The notes: generated by a model from the letters alone, not told the origin. Shown: positions 10,512-39,724, numbered from the stretch's first letter. The stretch: DNA of 64,000 nucleotides from an uncultured Chloroflexia bacterium (GCA_963768035.1 CAVYGJ010000002.1:305453-369452); one strand, 5' to 3'. Program-made: numbers and translations.

Positions 10512-11032
10512 ATGACCCAGCTCATCGGCACCCGCGGGCTCCATCGGCCCTCGCGGCTCGGGATCGCGCTCGGGCTCATCGCCGCGGCCATCGCGGTCGC
10601 GCCGGCCGCCGCCGCACGGCCGGTGGTCACTCGAGTCGTGAACATCGGGTTCCACATCGAGCAGCACTTCGACGCGGACCCGTCGTGTGGTCCGTTCGCC
10701 ATCGGCGTCACCGAGATCGCCGACGGCAACTCCCACCTCGTGATCGTCGACGACGGGACGCGCCTGGCGATCACGTCGGCGAGACCTTCCGGATCACGGC
10801 GATCCCGGACGATCCGACGATCGCCTCCAACACCCGACAGGGGACGGACTCGGGGCACTTCCTGATCAAGCGCAACGGCGACCTCGTCGTCCACGAGTCG
10901 TTCCACGACTACGGCGTGGCCGCCTGGGATCTCGACGCGAAGATCCGCCTCTCGACCACGTTCATCACCCACAACGGCGAGGTCCAGGTCGACCACGGGA
11001 TCTTCAACGACATGCCGCCCGACGGCTGCTGA
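10512..11032 (+). CDS. secreted protein of unknown function; one frame break (about 10757-10785)
   Basis: GGAGGG SD. Signal-like N-terminus MTQLIGTRGLHRPSRLGIALGLIAAAIAVAPAAAA. The C-terminal part (GETFRITAIPDDPTIASNTRQGTDSGHFLIKRNGDLVVHESFHDYGVAAWDL...DMPPDGC) lies in a second frame. Confidence 0.4.
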
Positions 11033-11109
11033 TCGTGCCGAAGGCGGACCCGGCCGGCGATCGCGCCCGGCCGGGTTCCTCCTTGAGGTGGGCACGTTGG
11101 GCTGTCAGG

Positions 11110-22874: not shown

Positions 22875-23121
22875 GGTCGTTCGTCGTCCCAGTTCCCGGT
22901 TTCCCCCGTTTAGTACCCACGCGGTTCGAACGTCGCGATCCGGGCCGCGGTACCCGTGTGAGTACTGAGACGGCCGGAATACGGTGGTTTCCGGTCGGAT
23001 CCGGCGCGTTGCACCCGCGCCAGGACTGAGTGGGGGAAACGCGGGCTCGCGAGCACTCCCGGCGAAACTCGATACGTCGCGGGCGCACGTTCTTCGTGGA
23101 GATGGAGTACGATGCCCGGGA

Positions 23122-23143
23122 ACCGACCGACTGGTCGGTCGGT
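23122..23143. promoter_or_regulatory. candidate TetR operator (perfect 10-2-10 palindrome) at the men operon promoter
   Basis: ACCGACCGAC-TG-GTCGGTCGGT at 23122-23143, immediately downstream of a TACGAT -10-like hexamer (23108-23113) and 32 nt upstream of the tetR start. Confidence 0.55.
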
Positions 23144-23174
23144 CGCATCGCCAGGACCGTCGAGAGAGCACCCG

Positions 23175-23858
23175 ATGAGCCGTCCCGATCCCGCCGAACA
23201 GAGCCGCAGCCGTCGCGAGCGGATCCTCGACGCCGCGTTCCACGCGTTCGCGACGCGCGGCTATCGCGACACCGCCGTGGACGACATCGCGGGCGCGGCC
23301 GAGACGTCGAAGGGCGGCATCTACTTCCACTTTCCGACCAAGGAAGCGATCTTCCGCGAGCTCATGGAGACGACCGCGGACAAGCTGGTCGCGCGGGTCG
23401 AGAAGGCGGTCGCGCTCGAGACGGAGCCCGTCGCCCGCGCCGAGGCGGCGATCCACACGGTCCTCACGACGTTCGCCGGCCACCGCACGATGGCGCGGCT
23501 GCTGTTCCTCGACACGGTGGGCGCGGGGCGCGTGTTCCAGGCCGAGACGAACGCCCTCCACGCGCGGTTCGCGACGCTGATCCAGGGCTACCTCGACGAC
23601 GCCGTCGCCGCGGGCGCGATCCCGCCGATCGACACGCGGATCACCTCGATCGCCTGGTTCGGCGCGATCAACGAGGTGGTCGCCCGGTGGCTCCTCGCCG
23701 ACGACGCGGCCGGCCTCGAGGAGGCGTACCCGGCCCTCCGCGCGACGCTGCTGCGGTCCGCGGGCGTGCCCGAGGCCCGGATCGGCGAGGTGCCGCTGCC
23801 CGAGCCCGGCTGGTCCTTCCCCGAGGTCCCGAAGGCCGGGAAGGCGACCGGCCGATGA
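23175..23858 (+). CDS. TetR/AcrR-family transcriptional regulator, first gene of the men operon
   Basis: MSRPDPAEQSRSRRERILDAAFHAFATRGYRDTAVDDIAGAAETSKGGIYFHFPTKEAIF, the TetR N-terminal HTH. Its stop overlaps the menF start (ATGA). Confidence 0.85.
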   Translation: MSRPDPAEQSRSRRERILDAAFHAFATRGYRDTAVDDIAGAAETSKGGIYFHFPTKEAIFRELMETTADKLVARVEKAVALETEPVARAEAAIHTVLTTFAGHRTMARLLFLDTVGAGRVFQAETNALHARFATLIQGYLDDAVAAGAIPPIDTRITSIAWFGAINEVVARWLLADDAAGLEEAYPALRATLLRSAGVPEARIGEVPLPEPGWSFPEVPKAGKATGR

Positions 23859-25313
23859 CCGCGACCCGCGACCCGCGCATCGACACCGGCGCCGGCCTCG
23901 GCGAGCGCCTGGCCGCGCTCCTCGCGACGACGACACACGACGGCAAGCGATGGCGACGCCCCGACGCTCGTCTCCGCGACCCTGCCGGCGCCGGCCGCCG
24001 ATCCCGTCTCGCTCTACGCCGCCGCCGTCGAGGTCGGGCTCGAGGCCGCGCTGTGGCTCCGCCCGTCGGAGGGGTCGGCGTTCGTCGGCATCGGTCGGGC
24101 ATGGGCGACGGAGCCCTCGGGCGAGGGACGGTTCCATGCGGCCGAGGCGGCGTGGCGGGCGCTGCTCGCGGGTGCGCGCCTCGACCGGGCACCCGATGGC
24201 GCACGCGGCACCGGCCCGGTCCTGCTCGGCGCGATGGGCTTCACCGGCCGCGAGCCTGCGGCAGACGACGCGTGGGCGCCGTTCGGGGCGAGCTCGCTCG
24301 TGCTCCCGTCGCTCACCCTGGCCGTGTCGCCCACCGGGTCGACCGTCACCGCATCGGTCGTCGGCGGCGACGCGGACCCGCGCGACCTCGAGCGACTGTG
24401 GCGATCGCTCCTCGAACGCGCCCGCGAGCTCGCCCCGAGCCCCAACGGGATCGTCGCGATGCCCGTGTTCGCGCCGCTCGTGGTCGCGGACGAGCAGCCG
24501 TCGAAGGACGTCTTCAAGCGCCTCGTCGGCATGTTCGCCGGCGCGGTCGGCCGCGGCCGGATCGACAAGGTGGTGCTCGCGCGGCGGGTCGGCATGCGCT
24601 CGCCCGTCGAGCTCGACGTCGTCAACGCCCTCCGCCGCCTGTCGGTGAGCGCGCCCGAGAGCACGACCTACGCGTTCCGGCGCGATGGACGGACGTTCCT
24701 CGGCGCCACGCCGGAGCGGCTCGTCAGGACCGAGGGCCGCACGTTCCACACCGTCGCCGTCGCGGGCACGATCCGCCGCGGGGCGGGCCCCGAGGAGGAC
24801 GCCGAGCTCGGCCGCCGGCTCCTCGCCAGCGAGAAGGACCGCGAGGAGCACGCGATCGTCGTGGACGCGATCCGTGGCCTGCTCGCGCCGGTCTCGGACT
24901 CGCTCGCGGTCGCGCCCGAGCCCGGCGTCATGACCCTCCGCTACGTCCAGCACCTCGTGACCGAGATCTCGGGCACGGTCCCCGAGGGCCACGGCCTGCT
25001 GGCCCTGGGCGAGCGCCTCCACCCGACCCCGGCCGTCGGCGGCGACCCGCGGGACGTCGCGCTCGCGCTCATCGACGAGCACGAGGGCTTCGACCGCGGC
25101 TGGTACGCGGGCCCGATCGGCTGGCTCGGGGCCGACGGCGACGGCGAGCTGTGCGTCGCCCTCCGGTGCGGGATCGTCGACCGGACCCGGGCGACGCTGT
25201 TCGCGGGCTGCGGGATCGTGGCGGACTCCGACCCGGACCAGGAGTGGGAGGAGTCGCGGATCAAGCTGCAGGCCGTGATCTCGGCGCTGGGCATCCCGGG
25301 GGAGGACGCGTGA
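23855..25313 (+). CDS. menF: isochorismate synthase MenF; one frame break near 23946
   Basis: C-terminal chorismate-binding signature ...ERLVRTEGR...AGTIRRG...SEKDREEH...LHPTPAVGG...GWYAGPIGW...ALRCG... The N-terminal 30 aa (MTATRDPRIDTGAG...) lie in another frame starting at the ATGA overlap with tetR. Confidence 0.88.
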
Positions 25314-27088
25314 GCGACGCCCGGCTCCTGCGCGCGTTCGCGGCCGAGCTCGTCGCGGCCGGGGTCACCGACGCCGTCGTGTGTCCCGGGTCGCGCTCGA
25401 CGCCGCTCGCCCTGGCGCTCCGCGCCGCGCCCGGCCTCCGGGTCCGCGTCCTCCTCGACGAGCGTGCCGCCGGCTTCTTCGCCCTCGGCATGGCCCGCAC
25501 GAGCGGCCGCCCCGTCGTCCTGCTCGCGACGTCCGGGACGGCGACCGTGGAGTTCGGCCCGGCCGTCGTCGAGGCGAGCCTCTCGCGTGTCCCGCTCGTC
25601 GTGCTGACCGCGGACCGCCCGCCCGAGCTCCGCGACCGCGGCGCGCCCCAGACCATCGACCAGGACCACCTGTATGGCGTCCATGCCAAGTGGTACACGG
25701 AGCTGCCGCTGTTCGACGGCGACCCGGCGACCGAGGCGCACGTCCGATCCGTCGCGGGCCGCGCCGTCGCGACCGCCGCCGCCGGGCCCGCGGGACCGGT
25801 CCAGGTCAACGTCCCGTTCCGCGAGCCGCTGCTCCCCGACGGGCCGCTCGCGGGGTCCGAAGACGGCACCAACGGCGCCGATGCGCCCCTCGCCGCGCCG
25901 TTCACGAGCGCCATCGCCGGGCGGCCGATCCTCGACGACGACCTGCTCGCCGAGCTCGCCGGGCTCCTCGGTCGGACGGCCCGCGGGCTCATCGTCGCCG
26001 GGCCGGACGACGACGCGGAGCTGCCCGAGGCCCTCGCGGGACTGGCTCGGGCGACCGGCTTCCCGATCCTCGCCGACCCGCTGTCCGGGCTGCGCACCGG
26101 TCCCCACGACCGGTCGCTCGTCGTCACCCGGGCGGACCAGCTCGTGCGTCCCGGCGGCTGGATCGAGGCCCATCGCCCGGACCTCGTGATCCGGACCGGG
26201 GCGATGCCCACGTCCAAGCCGATCCTCCAGCTCCTCGAGCGGACCCGGCCGGGGCTCGTCGTGATCGACGGCGACGGCGGCTGGCGCGAGCCCGCGCTGC
26301 TCCCGGCGATGTTCGTCCACGCCGACGCCGCGGCGACCGCCCGCGCGCTCACGGTGCGTCTCGGCAGCTCCGTGCGCCGCGGCACGTGGACCCGCGACTG
26401 GACCGAGGCGGAGCGGACCGCCGCCCGCGCGATGGACGGCTGGCTGGCGGCGCTCGACGAGCCGTTCGAGGGCTCCCCGTTCCCGGCCCTCGCCGAGGCG
26501 CTCCCCGACGGCGCCGTCCTGTGGGCGGGCAACTCGATGCCGGTCCGCGACCTCGACGGGTGGCTGCCGTCGACCGGGCGGGCGATCACGGTCCGCTCCA
26601 ACCGCGGCGCGAACGGGATCGACGGCGTCGTGTCGACCGCGCTCGGCTCGGCGGCGGTCGCGCCCGGGCCGGTCGCGCTCGTCGTCGGGGACGTGTCGTT
26701 CCTCCACGACCTCAACGCGCTGCTCGCGGCGAAGCTCCACGGCCTGTCCGCGACGATCGTGCTCGTGAACAACGACGGCGGCGGCATCTTCTCGTTCCTG
26801 CCCCAGGCGCAGCCGGGCACGCCGCCCGGCTCCGGCCTCCCGGAGCACTACGAGGAGCTGTTCGGGACGCCGCACGGGGTGGACGTCGCGCCGATCGTCG
26901 GCGCGCTCGGCGGCGAGCACGTCCTGGTGGCGGGCAACGCCGACCTGGCCGCGGCCATCGCGGACTCCGTCGGGCGGCCGGGCGTCCGCGTCATCGAGCT
27001 GCGCACCAACCGCGACCGCAACGTCGAGCTCCACCGGGGCGTGGCGGCGGTCGTCGCACGCGCGCTGGCGACGGCGGTGCCGGCATGA
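25310..27088 (+). CDS. menD: SEPHCHC synthase MenD
   Basis: GTGA overlap with menF. ...VCPGSRSTPLALAL...LLDERAAGFFALGMAR...ATSGTATVEF...LTADRPPELRDRGAPQTIDQ..., a ThDP-enzyme signature. Confidence 0.93.
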   Translation: MSDARLLRAFAAELVAAGVTDAVVCPGSRSTPLALALRAAPGLRVRVLLDERAAGFFALGMARTSGRPVVLLATSGTATVEFGPAVVEASLSRVPLVVLTADRPPELRDRGAPQTIDQDHLYGVHAKWYTELPLFDGDPATEAHVRSVAGRAVATAAAGPAGPVQVNVPFREPLLPDGPLAGSEDGTNGADAPLAAPFTSAIAGRPILDDDLLAELAGLLGRTARGLIVAGPDDDAELPEALAGLARATGFPILADPLSGLRTGPHDRSLVVTRADQLVRPGGWIEAHRPDLVIRTGAMPTSKPILQLLERTRPGLVVIDGDGGWREPALLPAMFVHADAAATARALTVRLGSSVRRGTWTRDWTEAERTAARAMDGWLAALDEPFEGSPFPALAEALPDGAVLWAGNSMPVRDLDGWLPSTGRAITVRSNRGANGIDGVVSTALGSAAVAPGPVALVVGDVSFLHDLNALLAAKLHGLSATIVLVNNDGGGIFSFLPQAQPGTPPGSGLPEHYEELFGTPHGVDVAPIVGALGGEHVLVAGNADLAAAIADSVGRPGVRVIELRTNRDRNVELHRGVAAVVARALATAVPA

Positions 27089-27900
27089 CCTCGGCGGCGA
27101 ACGCGCCGGCCTGGGCGCTCCGGGTCCACGGATCGGGACGCCCGCTCGTGCTGCTCCACGGGTTCACCGGGACCGGGGCCGCGTGGGACGAGCTGCTCGA
27201 CGGTCTCGGGGCCGGCCACCGGCTCATCGTCCCGGACCTGCCGGGGCACGGCGGCACATCGGCCGTATCGGCGGATGACGCCTCCGTCGAGCACGCCGCG
27301 GACGCGCTGGCGACGCTGCTTGACGCCCACGGCGCCACCCCCGCCGACGTCGTCGGGTACAGCCTCGGCGCGCGTGTCGCGCTCAGGCTCGCCGTCGTCC
27401 ACCCGTCCGCCGTCGCGCGCCTCGTCCTCGAGAGCCCGAGCGCCGGCATCGAGGCCGCCGATGCCCGGGCCGAGCGCCGCGCAGCCGACGAGGCGCTGGC
27501 CGACCGGATCGAGCGCGACGGGATCGCCTCGTTCGTCGACGAGTGGGAGCACCACCCGATCTTCCACACCCACGCCGCGCTCCCCACCGAGCGCCGCGAC
27601 CGGATCCGCGCGATGCGCCGCTCGAACACCCCATCGGGGCTCGCCGCGAGCCTGCGTGGGGCCGGCCAGGGCGCGATGGAGCCGCTGTTCGACCGCCTCG
27701 CGCTCGTGACCGCGCCGACGCTCGTGCTCGCGGGCGCGCTCGACGACGCCGGCCGGCCGCGCGCCGCCCGGGTCGCGGCGGGGATCCCCGGGGCGCGGCT
27801 CGTCGTCGTCGACGGCGCCGGCCACACCCCGCACGACGAGCAGCCCGACGCCTTCCGCACCCACGTGCTCGACTTCCTGGAGGAGGACCCCGCCGCATGA
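27085..27900 (+). CDS. menH: SHCHC synthase MenH (alpha/beta hydrolase)
   Basis: ATGA overlap with men[31 protein letters not shown] nucleophile elbow, GHTPHDEQP. Confidence 0.85.
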
Positions 27901-28727
27901 CCGATCCCGTCGCCTGGACGCCCGTCGTCGAGTACAAGGACATCCGCTACGAGCACTCGGGCACCGGCATCGCCAAGGTCACGATCGACCGCCCGGAGGT
28001 CCGCAACGCGTTCCGGCCGCAGACCGTGCGCGAGCTCATCGACGCGTTCGCCCGGATCCGCGACGACCCGTCCGTCGGCTGCGTCCTGCTCACGGGCGCC
28101 GGCGACATGGCGTTCTGCTCGGGCGGCGACCAGAAGTACAAGAGCCACGGCGGCGGCTACCTGGACTCGGACGGCGTGGCCCGGCTCAACGTCCTCGACC
28201 TCCAGCGCCAGATCCGCTCGCTGCCGATCCCGGTGATCGCCCTCGTGAACGGCTACGCCATCGGCGGCGGCCACGTGCTCCACGTCGTGTGCGACATGTC
28301 GATCGCGAGCGAGAACGCGATCTTCGGGCAGGTCGGGCCGCGGGTCGGGAGCTTCGATGCCGGGTTCGGCGTGGGCCTCCTCGCGCGGCTCGTGGGCGAC
28401 AAGAAGGCGAAGGAGATCTGGTTCCTGTGCCGCCAGTACACGGCGGCCGAGGCGATGGCGATGAACCTCGTGAACAAGGTCGTGCCGCTCGCGGACCTCG
28501 AGGCCGAGGGCGTCCAGTGGGCCGACGAGATCCTCGAGATGAGCCCGACGGCGATCCGCTTCCTCAAGTCGTCGTTCCTCGTCGCGACCGACGGGCTGGC
28601 CGGGCTCCAGGAGTTCGCGGGCAACGCGACGGGCCTGTACTACACGACCGACGAGGCGCACGAGGGGAGCACCGCGTTCCTCGAGAAGCGACGCCCCGAC
28701 TACCGCAAGTACCCGCGCCGCCCGTGA
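27897..28727 (+). CDS. menB: 1,4-dihydroxy-2-naphthoyl-CoA synthase MenB
   Basis: ATGA overlap with menH. ...[27 protein letters not shown]...FCSGGDQK...[16 protein letters not shown]...[10 protein letters not shown]. Confidence 0.95.
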
Positions 28728-28729
28728 GC

Positions 28730-29692
28730 ATGACCGCCGCCTCCCCGGCCGCGCCCCGGCCCTCGGGCTTCCGGATCTGGATCGTCGCCGCGCGCCCCGC
28801 GACGCTCCCGGCCGCGGTCGCCGGCGTGCTCGTCGGGCTCGGCGCGGCGCTCGCCGTGGGGACGCCGTTCCGCCTCGACACCGCGCTCGGCTGCATCGCC
28901 GTGGCGCTGCTGCTCCAGGTCGCGGCCAACTTCGCGAACGACCTGTCCGACTTCCGGCGCGGCGCCGACACCGACGCGCGGCAGGGGCCGCTGCGGGTCG
29001 CGGCCGCGGGACTGGTGACGGAGCGCCAGCTGGAGATCGCGATCGGCGTCGTCCTCCTGCTCGCCGGCCTCGTCGGGCTGTGGCTCGCGACGATCGGCGG
29101 CTGGGTGCTCGTCGCGCTCGGGGCGGCGGCGATGGTCGCGGCGCTCGCGTACACGGGCGGGCCGTTCCCGTACGGGTACCGGGCGCTGGGCGAGGTGTTC
29201 GTGTTCCTGTTCTTCGGCCTGGTCGCCGTCGTCGGGACGGCGTATCTCCAGGCGCTCCGGCTCGACGGCGTGTTCTTCGCGGCGGCGATCCCGCCGGGCC
29301 TCCTGATCACCGCGATCCTCGTCGTCAACAACCTGCGCGACATCCCGACCGACACCGCTGCCGGCAAGCGGACGCTCGCGGTGGTCCTCGGCAGGCGGCG
29401 GACGCAGGCGGAGTACGGCGTCCTCCTGGGGATCGCGTACGCCGTGCCGGTGGTGCTCGCCGTCGCATGGGTCCTCGGCGCGCGGCCGGCGGGGGAGCCG
29501 TGGGGCCTCGCGTTCGTGACCGCGCTGCCGCTGCTGACGCTGCCGATGGCGCGGCCGCTCCTCCGGACCGTGGCGACGTTCGACGAGCCGCGCCAGCTCA
29601 ACCTCGTGCTCAAGGGGACCGCCCGGCTGTCGCTCGTGTTCGGGCTGCTGTTCGCGGTGGGGCTGGCCGTGGGCGGCGGGGTCGCGGCATGA
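28730..29692 (+). CDS. menA: 1,4-dihydroxy-2-naphthoate polyprenyltransferase MenA
   Basis: UbiA-family NFANDLSDFRRGADTD motif and 8-9 TM segments. ATG 28730 is 3 nt after the menB stop; an alternative GTG 28724 overlaps that stop. Confidence 0.9.
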   Translation: MTAASPAAPRPSGFRIWIVAARPATLPAAVAGVLVGLGAALAVGTPFRLDTALGCIAVALLLQVAANFANDLSDFRRGADTDARQGPLRVAAAGLVTERQLEIAIGVVLLLAGLVGLWLATIGGWVLVALGAAAMVAALAYTGGPFPYGYRALGEVFVFLFFGLVAVVGTAYLQALRLDGVFFAAAIPPGLLITAILVVNNLRDIPTDTAAGKRTLAVVLGRRRTQAEYGVLLGIAYAVPVVLAVAWVLGARPAGEPWGLAFVTALPLLTLPMARPLLRTVATFDEPRQLNLVLKGTARLSLVFGLLFAVGLAVGGGVAA

Positions 29693-30756
29693 CGGCCGCG
29701 CTCGGCGTCCGGCGGGTCCGCGTCCCGTTCCGCGTGCCATTCGAGACGGCGGCGGGCACGTGGGCCGCGCGCGAGTCGCTGCTCGTGGAGATCCGCTCCG
29801 AGGAGGGCGCGCGAGGGATCGGGGAGGCGCCGATCGACGCATCGCTCCGGACCGCGGACCTGACCGGGTACGTCCAGCAGCTCCTCGAGGGGCCAGGCGA
29901 AGGCGTGCCCGATCACGTTCGTCATGCGTTCGCGTCCGGGCTCGGCGGCGCCGTGCTCGACCTCGCGCCGCCGCCCGAGCCCGTCGCCGCGGCGATCCGC
30001 GCCGGGGTCGGCGTCAACGCGACGATCCCGGTCGACGGGATCGACGAGACGGTCGTCGCCGCGGCGGCCGCGGTCGGGGCCGGGTACCGGACGCTCAAGC
30101 TCAAGGCAGGCGCCGCGGAGCGCGCGAGCACGCTCGTGGACCGGGTGCGGGCGGTCCGCCAGGCCGTCGGGCCGCGGGTCGCGATCCGCCTCGACGCGAA
30201 CGGATCCTGGGAGCTCGAGGGCGCCCTGGAGCGCCTACGACTCCTCGAGCCGATCGGGATCCAGTACGTGGAGCAGCCGCTGCCGATCGGCGCTCGCGGC
30301 GGCGCGGCCGCGCTCCGGGAGGCGACCGGCGTGCCGATCGCGGCCGACGAGGCCGTCACCTCCCCGGAGACGGCGATCACGCTCGTGGAGCACGGGGCGG
30401 CCGACGTGCTCGTCGTCAAGCTCGCACGGGTCGGCGGTCCGGGTGCCGCGGCAGCGATCTCGGCCGTCGCCGCCGAGGCGGGCGTGCCCGTCGTGATCTC
30501 GTCGCTGTTCGAGACCGGGTTCGGGCTCGCGGCCGCGGTCGCGTGCGCGGCCGCGCTCCCGGACGTGGACGGGTGGCCGGCCGCGGAGCGCGACCACGGG
30601 CTCGCGACGGCGGGCGTCCTCGTCCACGACCTGCTGCTCGAGCCGCTCGTGATCGCGGACGGGCGGATCCGGGCGCCGTTCGCGGAAGGGTCGGGCGGGC
30701 TGGGGGTCGTCGTCGACGAGGCGGCGGTCGACCGGTACGCGGTGGACGACGCATGA
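29689..30756 (+). CDS. menC: o-succinylbenzoate synthase MenC (enolase superfamily)
   Basis: ATGA overlap with menA. ...YRTLKLKAG...IRLDANGSW...YVEQPLP...PIAADEA...VVKLARVGG... Confidence 0.88.
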   Translation: MTAALGVRRVRVPFRVPFETAAGTWAARESLLVEIRSEEGARGIGEAPIDASLRTADLTGYVQQLLEGPGEGVPDHVRHAFASGLGGAVLDLAPPPEPVAAAIRAGVGVNATIPVDGIDETVVAAAAAVGAGYRTLKLKAGAAERASTLVDRVRAVRQAVGPRVAIRLDANGSWELEGALERLRLLEPIGIQYVEQPLPIGARGGAAALREATGVPIAADEAVTSPETAITLVEHGAADVLVVKLARVGGPGAAAAISAVAAEAGVPVVISSLFETGFGLAAAVACAAALPDVDGWPAAERDHGLATAGVLVHDLLLEPLVIADGRIRAPFAEGSGGLGVVVDEAAVDRYAVDDA

Positions 30757-32963
30757 CGTGGTCGCTGCCGGGACTCGTGGAGCGGCATGCCGCCGAGGCG
30801 CCCGAGGCCATCGCCATCCGCGATGACACTCGCGTCATATCGTGGGCGGAGCTGTCGGCGCGGGCCGATGCGTGGGCGGCGACGGTGCGCGAGCGCGGCG
30901 TCGGTCCCGGCGAACGGGTTGCCCTCGCGATGCCGCCCTCGGGTGAGCTCGTGGCGGCGATCATCGGCGTGCTGCGCGCCGGCGCGGTGGCTGCGCTGAT
31001 CCCGTCTGGCCTGACGACCCGCGAGACGGACGCGGCACTCGAGGTGCTCGCGCCGGCGCTCGTGCTGCGTGACGGCGACGCGGCGGCAGCCACGGGGGCA
31101 GCACACACGCCGCTCGACCCCGATCCCGAGGCCCCGGTCGTCGTCGTCCTCACGTCGGGCACGACCGGGCGACCGAAGGGCGTGGTCCTGTCCGGTCGGG
31201 CGATGGCGGCGAGCGCGGATGCCTGGCTCGCGGTCCTCCCACCCGTCACGGGCTGGGCGATGCCGCTCGGGCTCGCGCATGTCGCGGGTCTCGGCATCCT
31301 GTGGCGCGCCGTCCGTGATCGGGTGCCCGTGACGCTGCTCCCGCCGACGGACCCGGACGCGCTCATCGCGGCGCTGGAGGCCGATGGCGGGCCGAGCCAC
31401 GTCTCGCTCGTGCCGGGACAGCTCGTCCGGCTGCTCGACGCCACGAACGACGCCGCGCCGCCGCCAACCGTGCGCGCCCTCCTGCTCGGCGGCGGCACGA
31501 TCCCGGCCGCGCTCGTCGAGCGCGCCACGCGCGCCGGCTGGCCGGTCGTCACGACGTACGGCCTCTCGGAGATGGGCTCCGGCGTCACGGCGGACGGGCG
31601 GCCGCTCCCCGGCATGTCGCTCACGATCGACGAGCCGGGCCGGGACGGGGTGGGGGAGATCGTCGTCGCGGGGCCGTCGCGGTTCTCGGGCTACCTGGGC
31701 GAAGCACCGGCCGCACCCGACGAGCCGTTCCGGACCGGCGACCTCGGCCGCCTCGACGATGACGGCCGGCTCGTGGTCGTGGACCGGCGCACGGACCGGA
31801 TCGTGCGTGGCGGCGAGAACATCGATCCCGGCGAGGTGGAGGCGGTGCTCGAGGCGCATCCGGCCATCGCGACAGCGGCCGTCGTCGGGCGCCCGGACGA
31901 GACCTGGGGCCAGGTCCCGGTCGCCGCCGTCGTGCTCGCGGACGGCGCGACGGACCCCGGCGACGACGCCCTCGCCACCCACGCCCGCGCGTCCCTCGCC
32001 GGGTTCAAGGTCCCGGCGACGTTCACTCGCCTCGACGCCCTCCCGCGGACGCCCGGCGGCAAGCTCCGCCGCGACGCCGTCCGCGCGCTCCTCGCCGGCG
32101 AACCCGCCGGCGAGCTCGCCCGGCCGGACGGCGACGCCATCGGCTGGCGCGTCACCGGGTCCGGCCCGACGCCCGTGATCCTCCTCCACGGGACCCTGAG
32201 CACCGCGCAGCAGCTCGATCGTCTGGCGGCCGCGATCGCCGCCCCGGGCGACGTCACCGTCCACGCGATCGACCGCCGCGGCTCGGGCTCCAGCCGCCTC
32301 GCCCGGCCCCGTCCCCTCGATGTCGCCATGCACGTCGACGACGTCCGCGCCTACCTCGACGCCCGCGGGATCGGCCACGCGCCGTTCGTCGGCATCAGCA
32401 TGGGCGGCGTGGTCGCGCTCGAGATGGCCGCCCGCCACCCGACGCGGGTCGACGCCGTGGTCGCCTACGAGCCGCCCTATGGCGTGGTCGCGGACGCGGA
32501 GCGCATCGCCTGGTTCCGCCGCGTCGCCGCCGACACCCAGCGTGCGCACGACGAGGGCGGCCCGCCGCTGGCGGCCGAGACGTTCCTCCGCCACGTCGCC
32601 GGCGCCGAGTCCTGGGACCGCCTGCCCGAGCGCGCCCGCACGTTCCTCGCCCGCGAGGGCGACGGCGCGCTCGCCGACGCGTGCATCACGGGCCTCGACC
32701 CCGACGGCCTCGCGCGGATCGTGGCGCCGGTGCTCCTCCTCACGGGCGGCGACAGCGAGCCGTTCTACGCCCCGATCGCCGCCGAGCTCGCCCGACGGAT
32801 CCCCGGCGCCCGCCTGCAGGCGCTCGAGGGCCTCCGCCACCCATCGCCGATCACCGACCCGCCGTCCGTCCTCGCGGCGATCCGCGACGGCCTCGGCCTC
32901 GATCCCGACCCCGGACCACCCCCGACCACGGCGCCCGCCGTCCCCCTGGAGCCCGCCCGATGA
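30753..32963 (+). CDS. menE: o-succinylbenzoate-CoA ligase MenE fused to a C-terminal alpha/beta-hydrolase domain (736 aa)
   Basis: ATGA overlap with menC. Adenylation motifs LTSGTTGRPKG, TTYGLSEMG, FRTGDLG, PGGKLRRDAV (up to about 32100). The frame then continues uninterrupted into ...PVILLHG...GISMGGVVALE...LLLTGGDSEPF...LRHPSP (about 32110-32960). Confidence 0.88.
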   Translation: MTWSLPGLVERHAAEAPEAIAIRDDTRVISWAELSARADAWAATVRERGVGPGERVALAMPPSGELVAAIIGVLRAGAVAALIPSGLTTRETDAALEVLAPALVLRDGDAAAATGAAHTPLDPDPEAPVVVVLTSGTTGRPKGVVLSGRAMAASADAWLAVLPPVTGWAMPLGLAHVAGLGILWRAVRDRVPVTLLPPTDPDALIAALEADGGPSHVSLVPGQLVRLLDATNDAAPPPTVRALLLGGGTIPAALVERATRAGWPVVTTYGLSEMGSGVTADGRPLPGMSLTIDEPGRDGVGEIVVAGPSRFSGYLGEAPAAPDEPFRTGDLGRLDDDGRLVVVDRRTDRIVRGGENIDPGEVEAVLEAHPAIATAAVVGRPDETWGQVPVAAVVLADGATDPGDDALATHARASLAGFKVPATFTRLDALPRTPGGKLRRDAVRALLAGEPAGELARPDGDAIGWRVTGSGPTPVILLHGTLSTAQQLDRLAAAIAAPGDVTVHAIDRRGSGSSRLARPRPLDVAMHVDDVRAYLDARGIGHAPFVGISMGGVVALEMAARHPTRVDAVVAYEPPYGVVADAERIAWFRRVAADTQRAHDEGGPPLAAETFLRHVAGAESWDRLPERARTFLAREGDGALADACITGLDPDGLARIVAPVLLLTGGDSEPFYAPIAAELARRIPGARLQALEGLRHPSPITDPPSVLAAIRDGLGLDPDPGPPPTTAPAVPLEPAR

Positions 32964-33712
32964 CCGACAGCCTCCCGCCCGACCACACGCCGTCCGGCGC
33001 CGGCACGGGGGCCGGCAACGCCGCCGCGCCGACCGAGGTCCGGGTCATGTTCGACCGGATCGCGAACCGCTACGACCTCATGAACCTGCTCATCTCCGCG
33101 TTCCAGGAGCCGCGCTGGCGCGGGAAGCTGGTCGCCGCGGCGAGCCTCCGCCCCGGCGACGCGGCCCTCGACGTCGCGAGCGGCACCGGCAAGGTGGCGG
33201 CCGACCTCCACGCACGGGTGGCGCCGTTCGGCCGGGTGCTGGGCGTGGACCTGAGCCCCGGGATGATCGCCGTCGCCCAGGACCGCTACGCCGGTCGCCA
33301 GGGCCTCGAGTACGTCGTCGGCGACGCGCTCGCCCTGCCCACCGAGGACGCCACCTTCGACGCCGCGACGATCGCCTTCGGCATGCGCAACCTCCCCGAC
33401 TACCGACAGGGGTTCGCGGAGATGGCCCGCTCCGTCCGGCCCGGGGGCCGGGTCCTGTGCCTCGAGATCGCCCGGCCGCGCAGCCGGCTGTCGCGGTTCA
33501 TGCGCTGGTGGTTCGACCGGATCGTGCCCGTCATCGGCCGCCTCGCGGGCCAGGGCTCCGCGTACGGCTATCTCGTGAAGTCCGTCCAGGCCTACCCGTC
33601 GCCCGAGCGGATCGCCGAGATCATGGGCGAGGCCGGCCTGGTGGACGTCCGCTGGCAGGGCCTCACCGGCGGGATCGTGACGCTCCACGAGGGCACCGTC
33701 CCGCCCGCCTGA
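32960..33712 (+). CDS. menG: demethylmenaquinone methyltransferase MenG/UbiE
   Basis: ATGA overlap with menE. VMFDRIANRYDLMNLLISAFQEPRWR, LDVASGTGKVA, FGMRNLPD. Confidence 0.92.
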   Translation: MTDSLPPDHTPSGAGTGAGNAAAPTEVRVMFDRIANRYDLMNLLISAFQEPRWRGKLVAAASLRPGDAALDVASGTGKVAADLHARVAPFGRVLGVDLSPGMIAVAQDRYAGRQGLEYVVGDALALPTEDATFDAATIAFGMRNLPDYRQGFAEMARSVRPGGRVLCLEIARPRSRLSRFMRWWFDRIVPVIGRLAGQGSAYGYLVKSVQAYPSPERIAEIMGEAGLVDVRWQGLTGGIVTLHEGTVPPA

Positions 33713-33770: not shown

Positions 33771-35049
33771 GTGCCGAATCCCCTCGGCCGGGCCGCGGAC
33801 GCCGTCGCGCCGCCGCGGCTCGGTCGCTCGTTCCGCCTGCTGCTCCTCACGTCGGTCGTCACCAACACCGGCGACGGCATCGCGCTGGCCGCCGGGCCGC
33901 TCCTCGTCGCGAGCCAGACCCGCGACCCGCTGATCGTCTCGATGGCGGTGCTCGCCCAGAACCTCCCGGTGCTGCTGTTCGGGTTCGCCGCCGGCGTCGT
34001 GGCGGACCGCGTCGACCGGGTCCGGCTCATGGCCGTGGTCAACGTCGTCCGGGGGATCGTCCTCGCGCTGCTCGCCGCGAGCGTCGCGACCCACGTCGTC
34101 AGCATCTGGGTCGTGCTGGCCGCGCTGTTCGCGCTCGGGACGGCGGAGACGTTCGCGGACATCGGCAGCGCGAGCATCCTGCCGCGGCTCGTCCGGCGCG
34201 AGGACCTGGGCATCGCGAACGCGCGCATCACGGGTTCGGTGCTCCTGACCAACCAGCTCGTGGCGCCGCCCATCGGCGCGTTCATGTTCGCCGCGGGGAT
34301 GGCCCTGCCGTTCATCGCTGACGCGGCGGGGTTCCTGCTCGGTGCCGTGCTGGTGTCGCGGGTCGTGTACTCGGTGGTCGTGGACGCGCCCGGCCGTCGT
34401 CGAGCGCCGCCACTGGCGCCACGAGATGGCCGAGGGCCTGCGCTGGCTCTGGGACCACCCGCCGATGCGGACGCTCGTGATCACGATCCTCGCGTTCAAC
34501 GTCACCTTCGGCGCGGCCTGGTCCGTGCTCGTCCTGTACGCGCAGGAGCGGCTGGGCATGACCGCGGTCGGCTTCGGCCTGATCACGACCGCGATGGCGA
34601 TCGGCGGGATCGCCGGCACGGTGTCGTACGGGCGGCTCGAGCGGCGGTTCTCGCTCGCCGACATCATGCGGGTGGGCCTGGTCATCGAGACGTGCACCCA
34701 CCTCGTGCTCGCGCTCACGACGCTGCCGGCCGTCGCCCTCGTCACGTTCACGGTGTTCGGCGCGCACGCGTTCGTGTGGGGGACGACCGCCACCGCGATC
34801 CGGCAGCGGGCCGTCCCGGATGCCCTCCTCGGGCGGGTCACGAGCGTGTACCACGTGGCCGTCATGGCCGGCATCGTGGTGGGCACGCCGATCGGGGGGT
34901 TGCTCGCCCGGCAGTTCGGGATCACCGCGCCGTTCTGGTTCGGCTTCGCGGGCTCGGCGATCCTCGTCGTCCTCCTGTGGAAGGAGTTCGCGCACATCGT
35001 CCACGCGAGCGAGCACCCCGACGAGTCACCGGCGCCCGCCAATTCCTGA
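33771..35049 (+). CDS. MFS transporter (EntS/MFS_3-like); one frame break near 34391
   Basis: GTG 33771 lies 6 nt after TAGACT. ...LLLLTSVVTNTGDGIALAAGPLLV...VADRVDRVRLM... The second half (...EMAEGLRWLWDHPPMRTLVITILAFN...) is in the +1 frame. Confidence 0.75.
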
Positions 35050-35088
35050 CAGGAGATGGCTGGAGTCGGGCGGTACCATGTGCCGCCC

Positions 35089-36030
35089 ATGTCGGAACAA
35101 CCCGCTCCCACGCCGCTCATCCACGCCCGAGGCCTGACGAAGCGATTCGGCGAGCTCACGGCCGTCGACGGGATCGACTTCGACGTCGCGCCCGGCGAGA
35201 GCTTCGGCTTCCTCGGCCCGAACGGCGCCGGCAAGACCTCGGCGATGCGGATGGTCGCGTGCGTCTCGCCGGTCACCGCGGGCACGCTCCGGATCCTCGA
35301 CCTCGACCCGGTCACCGACGGGCCGCGGATCCGCGGGCGCCTCGGCGTCGTGCCCCAGCAGGACACCCTGGACACGGAGCTGTCGGTCAAGGACAACCTC
35401 GTGATCTACGGCCGCTACTTCGGCCTGTCGCGCAAGGAGGCCGCGCGGCGCGGCGACGAGCTGCTCGAGTTCGCCCAGCTCACCGAGCGTGCCAACGACA
35501 AGGTCGAGCCGCTCTCGGGCGGCATGAAGCGCCGGCTGACGATCGCCCGGGCGCTCATCAACGAGCCCTCGATCCTGCTGCTCGACGAGCCGACGACGGG
35601 CCTCGACCCGCAGGCGCGCCACCTGCTCTGGGAGCGGCTGTACCGGCTCAAGCAGCGCGGCGTGACGCTCGTGCTGACGACGCACTACATGGACGAGGCC
35701 GAGCAGCTGTGCGACCGGCTCGTCGTCATGGACAAGGCCCGGATCGTCGCGGAGGGCTCGCCGCGCCAGCTCATCGAGGAGTACTCGACCCGCGAGGTGA
35801 CCGAGCTCCGGTTCCCGGTCGGCGTCCAGGAGACGCTCGACGGGCAGCTCGAGGGCCTCGGCGAGCGCATCGAGCTGCTGCCCGACCGCGTGCTCGTCTA
35901 CTCGGACGACGGCGAGGCCGCGGCCGCCGCGGCCCACCAGCGCGGCCTGGCGCCCGAGACCGTCCTCGTCCGCCGATCGTCGCTGGAGGACGTCTTCCTC
36001 CGGCTCACCGGACGGAGCCTCGTCGAGTGA
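35089..36030 (+). CDS. ABC transporter ATP-binding protein, NodI/DrrA-like
   Basis: Walker A GPNGAGKTS, signature LSGGMKRRL, Walker B LLLDEPTTGLD, and the NodI-like strings VIYGRYFG and LEFAQL. Confidence 0.9.
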   Translation: MSEQPAPTPLIHARGLTKRFGELTAVDGIDFDVAPGESFGFLGPNGAGKTSAMRMVACVSPVTAGTLRILDLDPVTDGPRIRGRLGVVPQQDTLDTELSVKDNLVIYGRYFGLSRKEAARRGDELLEFAQLTERANDKVEPLSGGMKRRLTIARALINEPSILLLDEPTTGLDPQARHLLWERLYRLKQRGVTLVLTTHYMDEAEQLCDRLVVMDKARIVAEGSPRQLIEEYSTREVTELRFPVGVQETLDGQLEGLGERIELLPDRVLVYSDDGEAAAAAAHQRGLAPETVLVRRSSLEDVFLRLTGRSLVE

Positions 36031-36854
36031 CCGCGGCCGCGGGCCCGCTGCGCGGCAAGGCGATCCCGCTCCAGGGCTCGCTCCGGAGCGCGTACGCCGC
36101 GTACGAGCACCAGTGGCTGCTCTACCTGCGGACCTGGCGCGGGTCGATCTTCGGGTCGTTCGCCCAGCCCGTCCTGTTCCTCGTCGCGATGGGGATCGGG
36201 CTCGGCGGGTTCGTGGACGCGTCGGGCAGCGGCGCCATCGACGTCCCGTACATCCAGTTCCTCGCCCCGGCGCTGCTCGTGTCGACGGTCATGCAGGGGT
36301 CCACGTTCGAGGCCACGTTCCCGGTCCTCGGCGGGTTCCGCTGGAACCGCCGCTACCACGCGATGTACGCGACGCCGCTGTCGCCGTACGCGATCGCGTT
36401 CGGGCAGATCGCCTGGATCGCGACCCGGGCGACGATCGTCGCGACGATCTTCTGCGGCGTGATCATCGCCTTCGGGGCCGCCGGATCGCCCGGCATCATC
36501 TGGACGATCCCGGTCGGGACGCTCACCGCGCTCGCGTTCGCCGGGCCGATCGCCGCCTACATGACGACCCAGCGCGACACGACCGCGTTCAACGCGATCT
36601 GGCGGTTCGGGATCACGCCGCTGTTCCTGTTCTCGGGGACGTTCTTCCCGATCGAGTCCCTGCCCGAGCAGGTCCGCTGGATCGCCTGGCTGCTGCCGCT
36701 GTGGCACGGCGTCGACCTCGCCCGCGCCCTGTCGCTCGGGACCGTCGGCGACGCGCCGCTGGTGCAGATCGCCCACGTCCTGATCCTGGCCGGCTGCGCG
36801 ATCGCCGGCGTCATCGCGATGTTCCTCATGTACCGAAGGCAGCTCGAGCAATGA
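36027..36854 (+). CDS. ABC-2 type permease (subunit 1)
   Basis: GTGA overlap with the ATPase gene. Six-TM ABC-2 topology; ...GITPLFLFSGTFFPIESLPEQVRWIAWLLPLWHGVDLAR. Confidence 0.8.
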   Translation: MTAAAGPLRGKAIPLQGSLRSAYAAYEHQWLLYLRTWRGSIFGSFAQPVLFLVAMGIGLGGFVDASGSGAIDVPYIQFLAPALLVSTVMQGSTFEATFPVLGGFRWNRRYHAMYATPLSPYAIAFGQIAWIATRATIVATIFCGVIIAFGAAGSPGIIWTIPVGTLTALAFAGPIAAYMTTQRDTTAFNAIWRFGITPLFLFSGTFFPIESLPEQVRWIAWLLPLWHGVDLARALSLGTVGDAPLVQIAHVLILAGCAIAGVIAMFLMYRRQLEQ

Positions 36855-37660
36855 GCGGCTTCGTCGCCCCGCTGCGCATCGCGCCGTTCCGCCTCGGCAG
36901 CCGTCGCGCGGCGCTGCTCATCGAGCGCAACGTCTACGTCTACAAGACCGGCTGGCTGGTCATCTTCAGCGGCTTCTTCGAGCCGCTGTTCTACCTGCTC
37001 TCGATCGGCCTGGGCATCGGCGGGATCGTCGGCGACATCCCGGGGCCGGACGGGACGCCGATCCCGTACGCGCTGTTCGTCGCCCCGGCGCTGCTCGCCT
37101 CCGCCTCGATGAACGGCGCGATCGCCGAGAGCACGTTCAACGTGTTCTTCAAGCTCAACTACCAGAAGACGTACGACGCGGTGCTCGCGACCCCGCTCGG
37201 CCCGGGCGACGTGGCGCTGGGGGAGATCGGCTGGGCAGTGATCCGGTCGACGCTCTACGCGCTGGGGTTCATGGTCGTGATCTTCGTGCTCGGGCTCGTG
37301 GTGTCGCCGTGGGCGATCTTCGCGGTGCCGGCGGCGACCCTGCTCGCGTTCGCCTTCGCGGCGGCGGGCATGGCCGCGACGACGTTCATGCGGTCGTGGC
37401 AGGACTTCGACCTGATCCAGCTCGTGGTGCTGCCGCTGTTCCTGTTCAGCGGCACGTTCTACCCGATCACGGCCTACCCGCCGGCACTCCAGCTGTTCGT
37501 CCAGCTGACGCCGCTCTACCAGGGCGTCGACCTGATCCGTGCGCTGATCACCGGCGTCGTGGACCCCGGGATCCTGTGGCACGTGGTCTACCTGAGCGTC
37601 ATGGGCGTCATCGGGCTGGCCATCGTGGCGCGCCGGCTGGACAAGCTGCTGCTCAAGTGA
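36851..37660 (+). CDS. ABC-2 type permease (subunit 2, paralog)
   Basis: ATGA overlap. ...VVLPLFLFSGTFYPITAYPPALQLFVQLTPLYQGVDLIR parallels subunit 1. Confidence 0.8.
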   Translation: MSGFVAPLRIAPFRLGSRRAALLIERNVYVYKTGWLVIFSGFFEPLFYLLSIGLGIGGIVGDIPGPDGTPIPYALFVAPALLASASMNGAIAESTFNVFFKLNYQKTYDAVLATPLGPGDVALGEIGWAVIRSTLYALGFMVVIFVLGLVVSPWAIFAVPAATLLAFAFAAAGMAATTFMRSWQDFDLIQLVVLPLFLFSGTFYPITAYPPALQLFVQLTPLYQGVDLIRALITGVVDPGILWHVVYLSVMGVIGLAIVARRLDKLLLK

Positions 37661-38985
37661 CCGAGCCCGAGACCGACGCCGCCGCACCAGAGGCAGTCCC
37701 GCGGCCGCGGTGGAAGCGCGACGTCGCCGCCTTCCTCGGCGGGCAGACGATCAGCCTGTTCGGCTCGATGCTCGTCCAGTACGCCGTGTTCTGGTACCTG
37801 GCGATCCAGTTCCAGTCGGGCGTCATGATGATGCTCGCGGCGCTGTTCGGGTTCCTCCCGCAGGCGGTCATCTCGCTGTTCGGGGGCGTGTGGGCCGACC
37901 GCCACAACCGCAAGTTCCTGATCATGGGCGCCGATGCCGCGATCGCGTTGTCGACGCTCTGCCTCGCGGTGATCATGCTCGCGGGCTTCAGCGAGCCCTG
38001 GCTCATCTTCGTGGTGCTCGCGATCCGGTCCGCCGGCGCCGGGATCCAGATGCCGGCGGTGTCCGCGCTCATCCCGCAGATCACCCCCACCGACCAGCTG
38101 ATCCGCGTCAACGGCTTCCTCGCGTCGATCCAGTCCGCGATGGCGCTGCTGGCCCCGGCCGCGGCGGGCGTGATCTATGCGGCAAGCGCGGCGAGCGCCG
38201 AGGACTCGCCCCTGGCGATCGTCCCGATCCTGTTCGTCGACGTCGTGACCGCGGCGATCGCGATCGCGCTGCTGGCGACGATCCCCGTGTCCGCCGTCGT
38301 GCGAACGGGCGCGGACGCGGCGACCGGCTACTTCGCGGACCTCGTGGACGGGGTGCGCTACGTCGCCGACCACGAGGTCGTCCGGTGGCTGCTCCTCCTG
38401 TTCGGGATCATCTTCGTGCTGACGGTCGCGCCGGGGAACCTCATTCCGCTGCTGCTCGTGCGGTCGTTCCCCTCGGGCGAGCAGGGCAACGTGGTGAACC
38501 TCGCGCTGTTCGAGATGGCGTTCAGCCTGGGCATGGTCGCGGGCGGGGTGCTGGTTGCCACGCTGGCGTCGAAGTGGGACCGCATCAAGCTCATCGCCGC
38601 GTCGTCGCTGACCTTCGGCCTGCTGTCGATCGCGCTCGGTCTCGCGCCCGGCCTGCTCGTCGTGTTCGCGGTCATGCTGCTGGTGGGGATCGTCGTGCCG
38701 TTCTTCTCGACGCCGTCGATGACGCTCCTCCAGGAGACCGTCGAGCCGGAGCGGCAGGGCCGCGTGTTCGGCTTCGTCGGGATCGTGATGGCCGTCGCGA
38801 TGCCGGCCGGGATGCTCGTGTTCGGGCCGCTCGCCGACGTGGTCCCGGTCGAGACGATCCTCGTCGTCACCGGGCTGGCGACCTTCGCGGTGGTCGGGCT
38901 CGCCCTGTTCCTCCCGGCGGGCCGGCGCGCCGTGGCCGCGGCGCATGCGATGTCGCGCCCGGGAGCGGTGGCCGAGCCCGAGTAG
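37657..38985 (+). CDS. MFS transporter (EntS/MFS_3-like, second copy)
   Basis: GTGA overlap with permease 2. ...FLGGQTISLFGSMLVQYAVFWYL...GVWADRHNRKFLIM...; about 12 TM segments. Confidence 0.8.
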   Translation: MTEPETDAAAPEAVPRPRWKRDVAAFLGGQTISLFGSMLVQYAVFWYLAIQFQSGVMMMLAALFGFLPQAVISLFGGVWADRHNRKFLIMGADAAIALSTLCLAVIMLAGFSEPWLIFVVLAIRSAGAGIQMPAVSALIPQITPTDQLIRVNGFLASIQSAMALLAPAAAGVIYAASAASAEDSPLAIVPILFVDVVTAAIAIALLATIPVSAVVRTGADAATGYFADLVDGVRYVADHEVVRWLLLLFGIIFVLTVAPGNLIPLLLVRSFPSGEQGNVVNLALFEMAFSLGMVAGGVLVATLASKWDRIKLIAASSLTFGLLSIALGLAPGLLVVFAVMLLVGIVVPFFSTPSMTLLQETVEPERQGRVFGFVGIVMAVAMPAGMLVFGPLADVVPVETILVVTGLATFAVVGLALFLPAGRRAVAAAHAMSRPGAVAEPE

Positions 38986-38998
38986 CGCTCCGACGGCG

Positions 38999-39724
38999 AT
39001 GCCCATCACCGATCCCGCGGCCGCCGCGCGCGAGGCGCACGACCTCCCGATGCTCGACGCCGCGATCGTCGACTGCTTCGCCTGCCCGCGGCTCGTCGCG
39101 TGGCGCGAGGAGCAGGCGCGGGTCAAGGTCGCGCGGTTCCGGGACGAGACGTACTGGGGTCGCCCGATCCCCGGCTATGGCCCCGCCGACGCGCGGATCC
39201 TGCTCGTCGGGCTCGCGCCGGCGGCGCACGGCGGCAACCGCACCGGCCGCGTGTTCACGGGCGACGAGTCGGGCGAGTTCCTGTGGCGGGCACTCCACGC
39301 GCAGGGCCTCAGCGACCGCCCGGTCAGCCGCCGCGCCGACGACGGCCTCCGGCTCATCGACACCCGGGTCGCGGCCGCGGTCCGGTGCGCCCCACCCGCC
39401 AACAAGCCGACGCCCGAGGAACAGCTGACCTGTCGCCCGTACCTCGTCCGCGAGATCGAGCTGCTCACCGAGCTCCGGGTCGTCGTCGCCCTCGGCGCGA
39501 TCGGCTGGGACGCGGCGCTGAAGGCCCTCGCCGCTCTCGGCCACGGCACCCCGGCCCCGAAGCCCAGGTTCGGCCACGCGGCCGAGGCGCGGATCGGCCC
39601 GCTCACCCTCCTCGGCAGCTATCACCCGAGCCAGCAGAACACCTTCACCGGCCGCCTCACCCAGCCGATGCTCCAGGACGTGCTCGCGCACGCCCGCGAG
39701 CTGGCAGGGCTTCCGGCGGCCTAG
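38999..39724 (+). CDS. uracil-DNA glycosylase, family 5 (UdgB-like, Fe-S)
   Basis: CFACPRLVAWRE Cys motif; motif A LLVGLAPAAHGGNRTGRVFTGD (Ala in the catalytic position, typical of family 5); motif B GSYHPSQQNTFTG. Confidence 0.8.
   Translation: MPITDPAAAAREAHDLPMLDAAIVDCFACPRLVAWREEQARVKVARFRDETYWGRPIPGYGPADARILLVGLAPAAHGGNRTGRVFTGDESGEFLWRALHAQGLSDRPVSRRADDGLRLIDTRVAAAVRCAPPANKPTPEEQLTCRPYLVREIELLTELRVVVALGAIGWDAALKALAALGHGTPAPKPRFGHAAEARIGPLTLLGSYHPSQQNTFTGRLTQPMLQDVLAHARELAGLPAA

Follow-up and report, generated by a model that had tools for sequence, protein, structure and literature searches.

A MenE-fused or MenE-coupled alpha/beta-hydrolase in the menaquinone operon of Candidatus Limnocylindria-type Chloroflexota: a candidate DHNA-CoA thioesterase

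The hydrolysis of DHNA-CoA (1,4-dihydroxy-2-naphthoyl-coenzyme A) to 1,4-dihydroxy-2-naphthoate (DHNA) and coenzyme A (CoA) was the last step of the classical menaquinone pathway to be assigned, and in many phyla it is still without an assigned gene. Every enzyme so far assigned to it has the hotdog fold, the result of independent recruitments in cyanobacteria, plants, and Enterobacteria. Escherichia coli MenI/YdiI, Synechocystis Slr0204, plant DHNAT, and the MenI proteins of Listeria and Staphylococcus aureus all catalyse this reaction, and the known hotdog thioesterases are stand-alone proteins, often encoded away from other men genes. A different arrangement is described here in an uncultured Chloroflexia bacterium, within a 64,000-nucleotide stretch of its genome (GCA_963768035.1, CAVYGJ010000002.1:305453-369452; hereafter, the window), where the o-succinylbenzoate (OSB)-CoA ligase MenE is fused in frame to an alpha/beta-hydrolase in a single open reading frame (ORF; 30753-32963, plus strand, 736 aa). 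Being fused or coupled to MenE throughout a lineage, this hydrolase is a concrete and cheaply testable candidate for another independent recruitment to the DHNA-CoA step. If confirmed, the assignment would correct current annotations and provide a marker for this step in abundant soil and freshwater Chloroflexota, its scope being one uncultured lineage and one housekeeping step.

Several described systems offer points of comparison. The plant protein PHYLLO is a fusion of MenF, MenD, MenC, and MenH. Fusions of MenI with the HAD-type protein MenY were predicted, together with MenJ, by comparative genomics of gut bacteria in a study proposing only MenJ and MenY (PMC4746308). Like the protein described here, these are Rosetta-stone style fusions of consecutive or cooperating menaquinone enzymes, though with different partner domains, and the MenY-MenI prediction was argued on similar grounds, namely a fitting general chemistry together with fusion and co-location. 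As to chemistry, Ser-His hydrolases commonly hydrolyse thioesters, and CoA thioesters can be cleaved by enzymes of the alpha/beta-hydrolase fold, such as the type-I acyl-CoA thioesterases (ACOTs), the type-II thioesterases (PF00975), and the E. coli esterase/thioesterase YbfF. The latter (3bf7/3bf8) was among the sequence matches of the hydrolase; similarity to this group of thioesterases is generic, at 36-69 bits, with no shared substrate determinants seen. A literature search found no description of a MenE-hydrolase fusion, of an alpha/beta-fold DHNA-CoA thioesterase, or of menaquinone synthesis in Limnocylindria, while public annotations read 'O-succinylbenzoate-CoA ligase', 'alpha/beta fold hydrolase', or 'pimeloyl-ACP methyl ester carboxylesterase'.

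With a G+C content of about 76%, the window contains long chance ORFs in all frames, and reading frames were fixed via third-position G+C (GC3). The original prediction of a 736-aa in-frame fusion, with MenE in residues 1 to about 450, was borne out by translation, GC3, and Pfam: the ORF has no internal stops, the GC3 phase is unchanged from ~30820 to ~32980, across the proposed junction, and AMP-binding, AMP-binding_C (361-437), and Abhydrolase_6 (475-709) are all matched on the same protein. The MenE domain comprises residues 1 to ~449 (30753..32099) and the hydrolase domain residues ~452-720, followed by a tail that is Pro-rich and disordered (32106..32963), both on the plus strand, with the junction at residues ~447-456 (32091..32120). 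Codons 425-474 include neither a stop nor ATG, GTG, or TTG, as had been claimed for the junction; the sole start-type codon nearby, a GTG at codon 475, lies within the PVILLHG strand, where an intact hydrolase could not begin. The short linker proposed between the domains did not survive. In the full-length AlphaFold model (predicted local distance difference test, pLDDT, 88.2; predicted template modelling score 0.73), the last helix of MenE spans residues 440-447 and the first hydrolase beta-strand residues 452-456, leaving a 4-residue connection in a region of pLDDT 86-87; as modelled, the junction is effectively linker-free.

A full-length protein search retrieved at least 119 further clusters with identical domain order and 58-79% identity, almost all 710-830 aa long (three shorter entries look truncated), from NCBI, ENA, JGI, and Logan assemblies, several of them labelled Candidatus Limnocylindrales or Chloroflexota. 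The nearest relatives of the window protein are all fused; of 117 fused homologues, 116 have the same spacing between Asp441 and His479, and residues at the junction are conserved. The fusion seen in the 736-aa protein, of MenE with a serine hydrolase dedicated to the men operon, is genuine and selected.

The N-terminal half is a MenE by its ANL domains and motifs, its closest characterised relatives, and its operon context, although the curated cut-off is not reached. It carries LTSGTTGRPKG, of the A3 motif type, and the A10 lysine in PGGKLRR, and scores 157.5 bits with PF00501 and 72.1 bits with PF13193. TIGR01923 (menE) ranked first and matched end-to-end (residues 30-443 to model positions 1-442/442), with 262.8 bits against an equivalog cut-off of 330.15; the other NCBIfam menE models were also below theirs. 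The best solved structure was Bacillus subtilis MenE 5buq (E 2e-50), with 5x8f also matched, and the complete men operon encodes no ANL enzyme besides the fusion.

With the hydrolase domain alone as query, an exhaustive search without profiles over 1.84 billion representatives delimited a tight family of just 45 representatives at E<=1e-30, below which scores drop into generic hydrolases. Some close members (45-59% identity) truly stand alone, with lengths of 250-300 aa. Four genomes have such a stand-alone gene directly downstream of menE, in an operon of the same synteny, and each of them has a separate MenH; three of these genes share 4 bp with the menE stop, and the fourth is set off from it by 117 bp according to the gene calls. 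A survey with one genome for each GTDB species yielded 80 loci, to which six further loci were added. The family hydrolase was borne by 78 pooled loci, all labelled as Chloroflexota lineages, while eight matches in other phyla (31-36% identity) had no men context. The original prediction had suggested surveying related genomes for fusion or adjacency, and the outcome was uniform: in 76 of the 76 loci with upstream sequence, the hydrolase is fused to MenE or encoded directly downstream of it (TetR-menFDHBACE-X-menG; Candidatus Limnocylindria-type).

These 76 loci divide equally into 38 fused and 38 split ones, 36 of the latter being unique after two duplicates were dropped. At the junction of 33 of the 36, a 4-bp ATGA, GTGA, or TTGA combines the menE stop with an in-frame start of the hydrolase gene (ATG, GTG, or TTG), often after a GGAG-like motif, and the ATGA stop/start overlap of split relatives sits at the position of the junction in the window. 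Both states were seen in assemblies from different projects. In neighbour-joining trees of either the hydrolase or MenB the two states form clades, yet at least 7-9 state changes are required, and a single origin of the fusion was rejected on this ground. The comparison describes a translationally coupled gene pair that has apparently been fused or split repeatedly via single-base changes.

Some peculiarities of the related loci are reported separately. In some split-type relatives (L004, L003, L037, L041, L069), menG is not downstream of the hydrolase, and in L004 a HAD-family hydrolase (10822-11523) occupies its usual place. Several loci from 'MFD' metagenome-assembled genomes (L012, L016, L024, L044, L065, L073, and others) gave broken tblastn matches in menD, menH, menA, menC, or menE, consistent with indel errors; proteins of 367-430 aa consisting of AMP-binding_C and the hydrolase, such as P0371 and P0375, are probably products of such breaks and not a third architecture. 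Distant matches were also considered as a source of informative architectures and discarded, being alpha/beta-hydrolases duplicated in tandem or a fusion with rhodanese, and having no relation to men.

The claim that the fusion contains a complete alpha/beta-hydrolase was supported concordantly by Pfam, AlphaFold2, and Foldseek. Pfam assigned generic models (Abhydrolase_6/_1 and Hydrolase_4), the AlphaFold2 model of the domain had a mean pLDDT of 92.5 and the canonical order of strands and helices, and Foldseek against the PDB returned alpha/beta-hydrolases at probability 1.00, with a TM of ~0.72 and 17-28% identity. The structural matches were carboxylesterases, the enol-lactonase 2xua, polyhydroxybutyrate (PHB) depolymerases (PhaZ), and haloperoxidase-type esterases, with neither thioesterases nor MenH among the top 50. 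No curated NCBIfam family was reached, the sub-threshold matches being limited to PcaD, polyhydroxyalkanoate depolymerase, esterase, and MenH models. The domain search proposed as a check confirmed the fold; in comparisons by sequence, profile, and fold, the matches were limited to generic esterases and lactonases and the uncharacterised structure 3r0v.

Catalytic residues were assessed on 223 sequences, 117 fused and 106 stand-alone or split. The nucleophile Ser549 (32397-32399, plus strand) lies in the GxSxG elbow (G547-x-S549-x-G551) after beta5, and the catalytic His696 (32838-32840, plus strand) follows beta8; G547, Ser549, G551, and His696 are invariant in 223 of 223 sequences. The acid had originally been placed at Asp667, in LLLTGGDSEPF, a choice that conservation disfavours: Asp667 is unlikely to be the catalytic acid because the position is Ala in 107 of 117 fused and 76 of 106 split relatives. 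Acidic alternatives conserved in at least 97% of sequences are Asp642, in the lid, and Glu573 (32469-32471, plus strand), in 'YEPPY' directly after strand beta6. Glu573 is the likelier acid; an acid after beta6 occurs in other alpha/beta-hydrolases, such as the LinB/DhaA-type dehalogenases. By its conserved residues, the hydrolase is almost certainly a catalytic Ser-His enzyme dedicated to the men operon. A role in the men pathway is strongly supported by the comparative genomics, since linkage to menE in 76 of 76 loci was kept through rearrangements, and this linkage, together with the strict conservation of Ser549 and His696, argues for a role that is both catalytic and tied to the pathway.

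Two arginines distinguish the fused clade. Arg613 (32589-32591) and Arg627 (32631-32633) are present in 117/117 and 116/117 sequences of this clade, respectively, whereas Ala or Glu predominates at these positions among the stand-alone members. Their role may be in a domain interface or in contacting a substrate specific to the clade, although phylogeny confounds the comparison.

The genes of the operon cover every step of the classical menaquinone pathway except DHNA-CoA hydrolysis. The absence of a hotdog DHNA-CoA thioesterase from the cluster, noted in the original prediction, held within the window and about 10 kb around the operon: among 20 ORFs of the window that were small or unassigned, Pfam revealed no hotdog/4HBT family, none of six related loci with Pfam annotation had a hotdog gene within ±10 kb of its operon, and tblastn with E. 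coli MenI found nothing over 1.6 Mb of related men neighbourhoods (best E 0.58). An unannotated 197-aa ORF after menG was considered as a hidden thioesterase and rejected, as it forms the N-terminal half of an MFS transporter whose frame is disrupted. The hydrolase itself shows the alpha/beta-hydrolase fold and no sequence similarity to E. coli MenI and, on this comparison, could be only an analogue, not a member, of the group including MenI/YdiI, Slr0204, and DHNAT. On the proposed role it would supply free DHNA to MenA, as the hotdog enzymes do, with an unrelated fold and other catalytic machinery, namely a Ser-His pair, and from a gene that is fused or coupled to menE.

Because the sole classical step without an operon gene requires no more than hydrolysis of a thioester, and CoA thioesterases with the alpha/beta fold are known, the hydrolase is a candidate for this reaction, and DHNA-CoA thioesterase is our best guess at its function, one that we consider evenly balanced between right and wrong. 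The hydrolase gene either overlaps the menE stop at an ATGA, with translational coupling, or is fused to it in frame, the two states being interconvertible by a one-base change. In the proposed scheme, its product would work through Ser549 and His696, with Glu573 after beta6 as the probable acid. The enzyme would cleave the thioester of the 1,4-dihydroxy-2-naphthoyl-CoA delivered by MenB, freeing DHNA for MenA and giving CoA back to MenE, and would thereby act as an alpha/beta-fold analogue of hotdog MenI/YdiI/Slr0204; the fusion with MenE would set a 1:1 ratio of CoA-consuming and CoA-releasing activities. A non-orthologous replacement of this kind within a well-known pathway is plausible. 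The fuller version of the proposal, put forward tentatively and with a little less assurance, is that this is the DHNA-CoA thioesterase of Candidatus Limnocylindria-type Chloroflexota and the first alpha/beta-hydrolase-fold solution to the step, a non-orthologous displacement of hotdog MenI carried on the mobile C-terminal domain of MenE and handing CoA back to the ligase.

Several observations weigh against this assignment. The closest characterised relatives, whether by sequence, profile, or fold, have 17-28% identity and comprise carboxylesterases, enol-lactonases, and PHB depolymerases, and the nearest solved structure, 3r0v, has no assigned function and belongs to a large family that is not men-linked. 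The canonical acid position, after beta7, is Ala in most members, and the triad geometry is inferred. The thioesterase step is flanked by MenB and MenA, whereas the fusion partner is MenE. Finally, genes for DHNA-CoA thioesterases often lie apart from men operons (in E. coli, menI is far from menFDHBCE), and these genomes may therefore encode a hotdog enzyme elsewhere. Of the earlier claim that the fused hydrolase acts in the men pathway on a CoA thioester, the tie to the pathway was upheld by the 76/76 linkage and the non-MenH residues detailed below, whereas the choice of DHNA-CoA or OSB-CoA as substrate amounts to guilt by association.

Among the alternatives, the one that best survives is that the contribution of the hydrolase to menaquinone synthesis or to the operon lies outside the classical scheme, as a lineage-specific tailoring or regulatory esterase or a largely structural partner of MenE, or else that it is a hitch-hiker kept in place by the structure of the operon; we consider it unlikely but worth serious attention. 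In its favour, no substrate-specific signature is recognisable in the hydrolase, and the domain appears to descend from a very large stand-alone family with unrelated gene contexts. The PDB profile search placed 3r0v first (E 7e-27), an uncharacterised structural genomics target from Sphaerobacter thermophilus, likewise a member of the Chloroflexota. Although its identity to the men hydrolase is only ~26%, the two share DRRGxGxS, the GxSxG elbow, EPPY after beta6, GGAS, the lid Asp, and the His, and 3r0v and the men hydrolase family both have Ala at the canonical acid position, within GGAS. The 3r0v-like family counts 7986 matches at E<=1e-20, which are stand-alone proteins of ~263 aa with the EPPY/GGAS set and Ala at the canonical acid position (P0382-P0501 among them). 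It is most readily taken as the parent family out of which the men-operon subfamily arose by recruitment. Against a non-classical role stand the linkage in 76 of 76 loci, with coupling or fusion kept through repeated rearrangements, and the strictly conserved Ser549 and His696, both pointing to an enzymatic role in the pathway.

The genomic surroundings of the 3r0v-like genes were also inspected as a possible route to a men context, which was rejected: on three long contigs (L087-L089), men genes were absent nearby and the neighbours were unrelated and variable. Glyoxalase, AHSA1, or luciferase-like oxidoreductase genes are often found near 3r0v-like genes.

OSB-CoA is reported to form OSB spirodilactone spontaneously, and a metabolite-repair enzyme acting on MenE chemistry, either by salvage or proofreading of mis-made or excess OSB-CoA or by opening of the spirodilactone, would account for a physical partner that is always MenE. 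The best NCBIfam matches of the hydrolase point in the same direction, being 3-oxoadipate enol-lactonases of the PcaD type, and the enol-lactonase 2xua is among the fold matches. This lactonase similarity is nonetheless generic, at 71-86 bits versus cut-offs of 256-430 and with every match far below threshold (TIGR02427, 71.4 versus 255.85 bits; NF051488, 85.7 versus 390). An OSB-CoA thioesterase fused to MenE would moreover drive a futile ATP-consuming cycle, and a repair function would leave the DHNA-CoA step of the operon without a gene. We therefore regard a repair role as decidedly improbable, and DHNA-CoA hydrolysis is retained as the preferred assignment.

A second, divergent MenH, acting as 2-succinyl-6-hydroxy-2,4-cyclohexadiene-1-carboxylate (SHCHC) synthase or in a related elimination, is more improbable still. 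The hydrolase shares with MenH the alpha/beta-hydrolase fold, the Ser and His, the location in the men operon, and 30% identity with the operon MenH, and TIGR03695 matches it weakly, over the N-terminal half only, with 41.9 bits against a cut-off of 208.55. Besides Ser86 and His232, MenH has the invariant residues Tyr85, Arg90, Arg124, Asp128, Trp147, Arg168, and Asp210 (PMC3630204). The operon MenH keeps 9 of 10 MenH-invariant residues (Y85, S86, R90, R124, D128, W147, R168, D210, and H232 in E. coli numbering) and scores 219.3 bits with TIGR03695, in line with the earlier description of a separate canonical MenH at 27085-27900. The hydrolase family, instead, lacks Tyr85, Arg90, Trp147, and Arg168: the columns Y85, R90, R124, D128, W147, and R168 are occupied by I/V/H, V/C, variable, variable, L/M, and a gap, respectively, and the Asp210 column, in a less reliably aligned stretch, by E/D/Q. 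A canonical MenH co-occurs in every locus spanning the menH position. These residues and the co-occurring MenH agree with the original argument that SHCHC synthesis needs no second hydrolase, and the domain is not a redundant MenH.

The least probable explanation, that the window fusion is an assembly indel at an ATGA overlap joining what are in truth two genes, draws on the fact that a 1-nt indel suffices to fuse ATGA-overlapping genes and on two further frame disruptions within 11 kb in the window (menF and an MFS gene), and such an artefact is very unlikely given the fused clusters with their fixed spacing, the junction modelled as ordered and without a nearby start codon, the conserved in-frame junction residues of the closest relatives from several sources and assemblers (P0002-P0120), and the loci L001, L002, L007, and L008, which are likewise fused in frame.

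The operon around the fusion, all on the plus strand, encodes MenF, D, H, C, E, B, A, and G, as had been stated, in the actual order TetR-menF-D-H-B-A-C-[menE::hydrolase]-menG. Every junction from TetR to menG (23855-33712) is a 4-bp ATGA or GTGA stop/start overlap, and the sequence thus describes a nine-gene men operon predicted to be fully translationally coupled. At its head, a TetR-family regulator (23112..23858, with the start at 23112 or 23175) is recognised by TetR-type NCBIfam matches, and a TetR gene precedes menF in all full-length related loci. The isochorismate synthase gene menF (23855..25313), whose ATG overlaps the TetR stop, scores 310 bits with TIGR00543, above the cut-off. 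It is followed by menD, for 2-succinyl-5-enolpyruvyl-6-hydroxy-3-cyclohexene-1-carboxylate (SEPHCHC) synthase (25310..27088; TIGR00173, 435 bits, cut-off 244; GTGA overlap with the menF stop), and by menH, for the canonical SHCHC synthase (27085..27900). The DHNA-CoA synthase gene menB (27897..28727; NF005637, 445 bits, cut-off 380) begins at an ATGA overlap, and the DHNA polyprenyltransferase gene menA (28724..29692; NF004751, 306 bits, cut-off 264) starts at GTG 28724 or ATG 28730. A divergent o-succinylbenzoate synthase gene, menC (29689..30756), has MR_MLE-family matches and 149.6 bits with NF002782, below the cut-off of 288; its position is kept in all related loci. Downstream of the fusion, the demethylmenaquinone methyltransferase gene menG/ubiE (32960..33712; TIGR01934, 203 bits, cut-off 158) overlaps the fusion stop at an ATGA.

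Two genes in this region present disrupted frames. In menF, an apparent 1-nt frameshift lies between ~23921 and 23950: the N-terminal 'AGLGERLAAL' matches in the 23855 frame, whereas the 75% identity to L001 MenF over 478 aa is in the 23859 frame, and the downstream frame is without a start for 125 codons. The frame switch reflects an assembly indel or else marks menF as a pseudogene. After menG, an MFS transporter gene is divided between two frames (33771-34346 and 34417-35019), with ~23 residues of the L001 orthologue unaccounted for between the halves, and the cluster therefore hides no small gene at this place. Further downstream of the men operon are a NodI/NodJ-like ABC exporter, consisting of an ATPase and two ABC-2 permeases (35056-37660), and a family-4 uracil-DNA glycosylase (38969-39724), an arrangement that recurs in L001-L006 together with DnaJ, PrmA, and a HIT protein.

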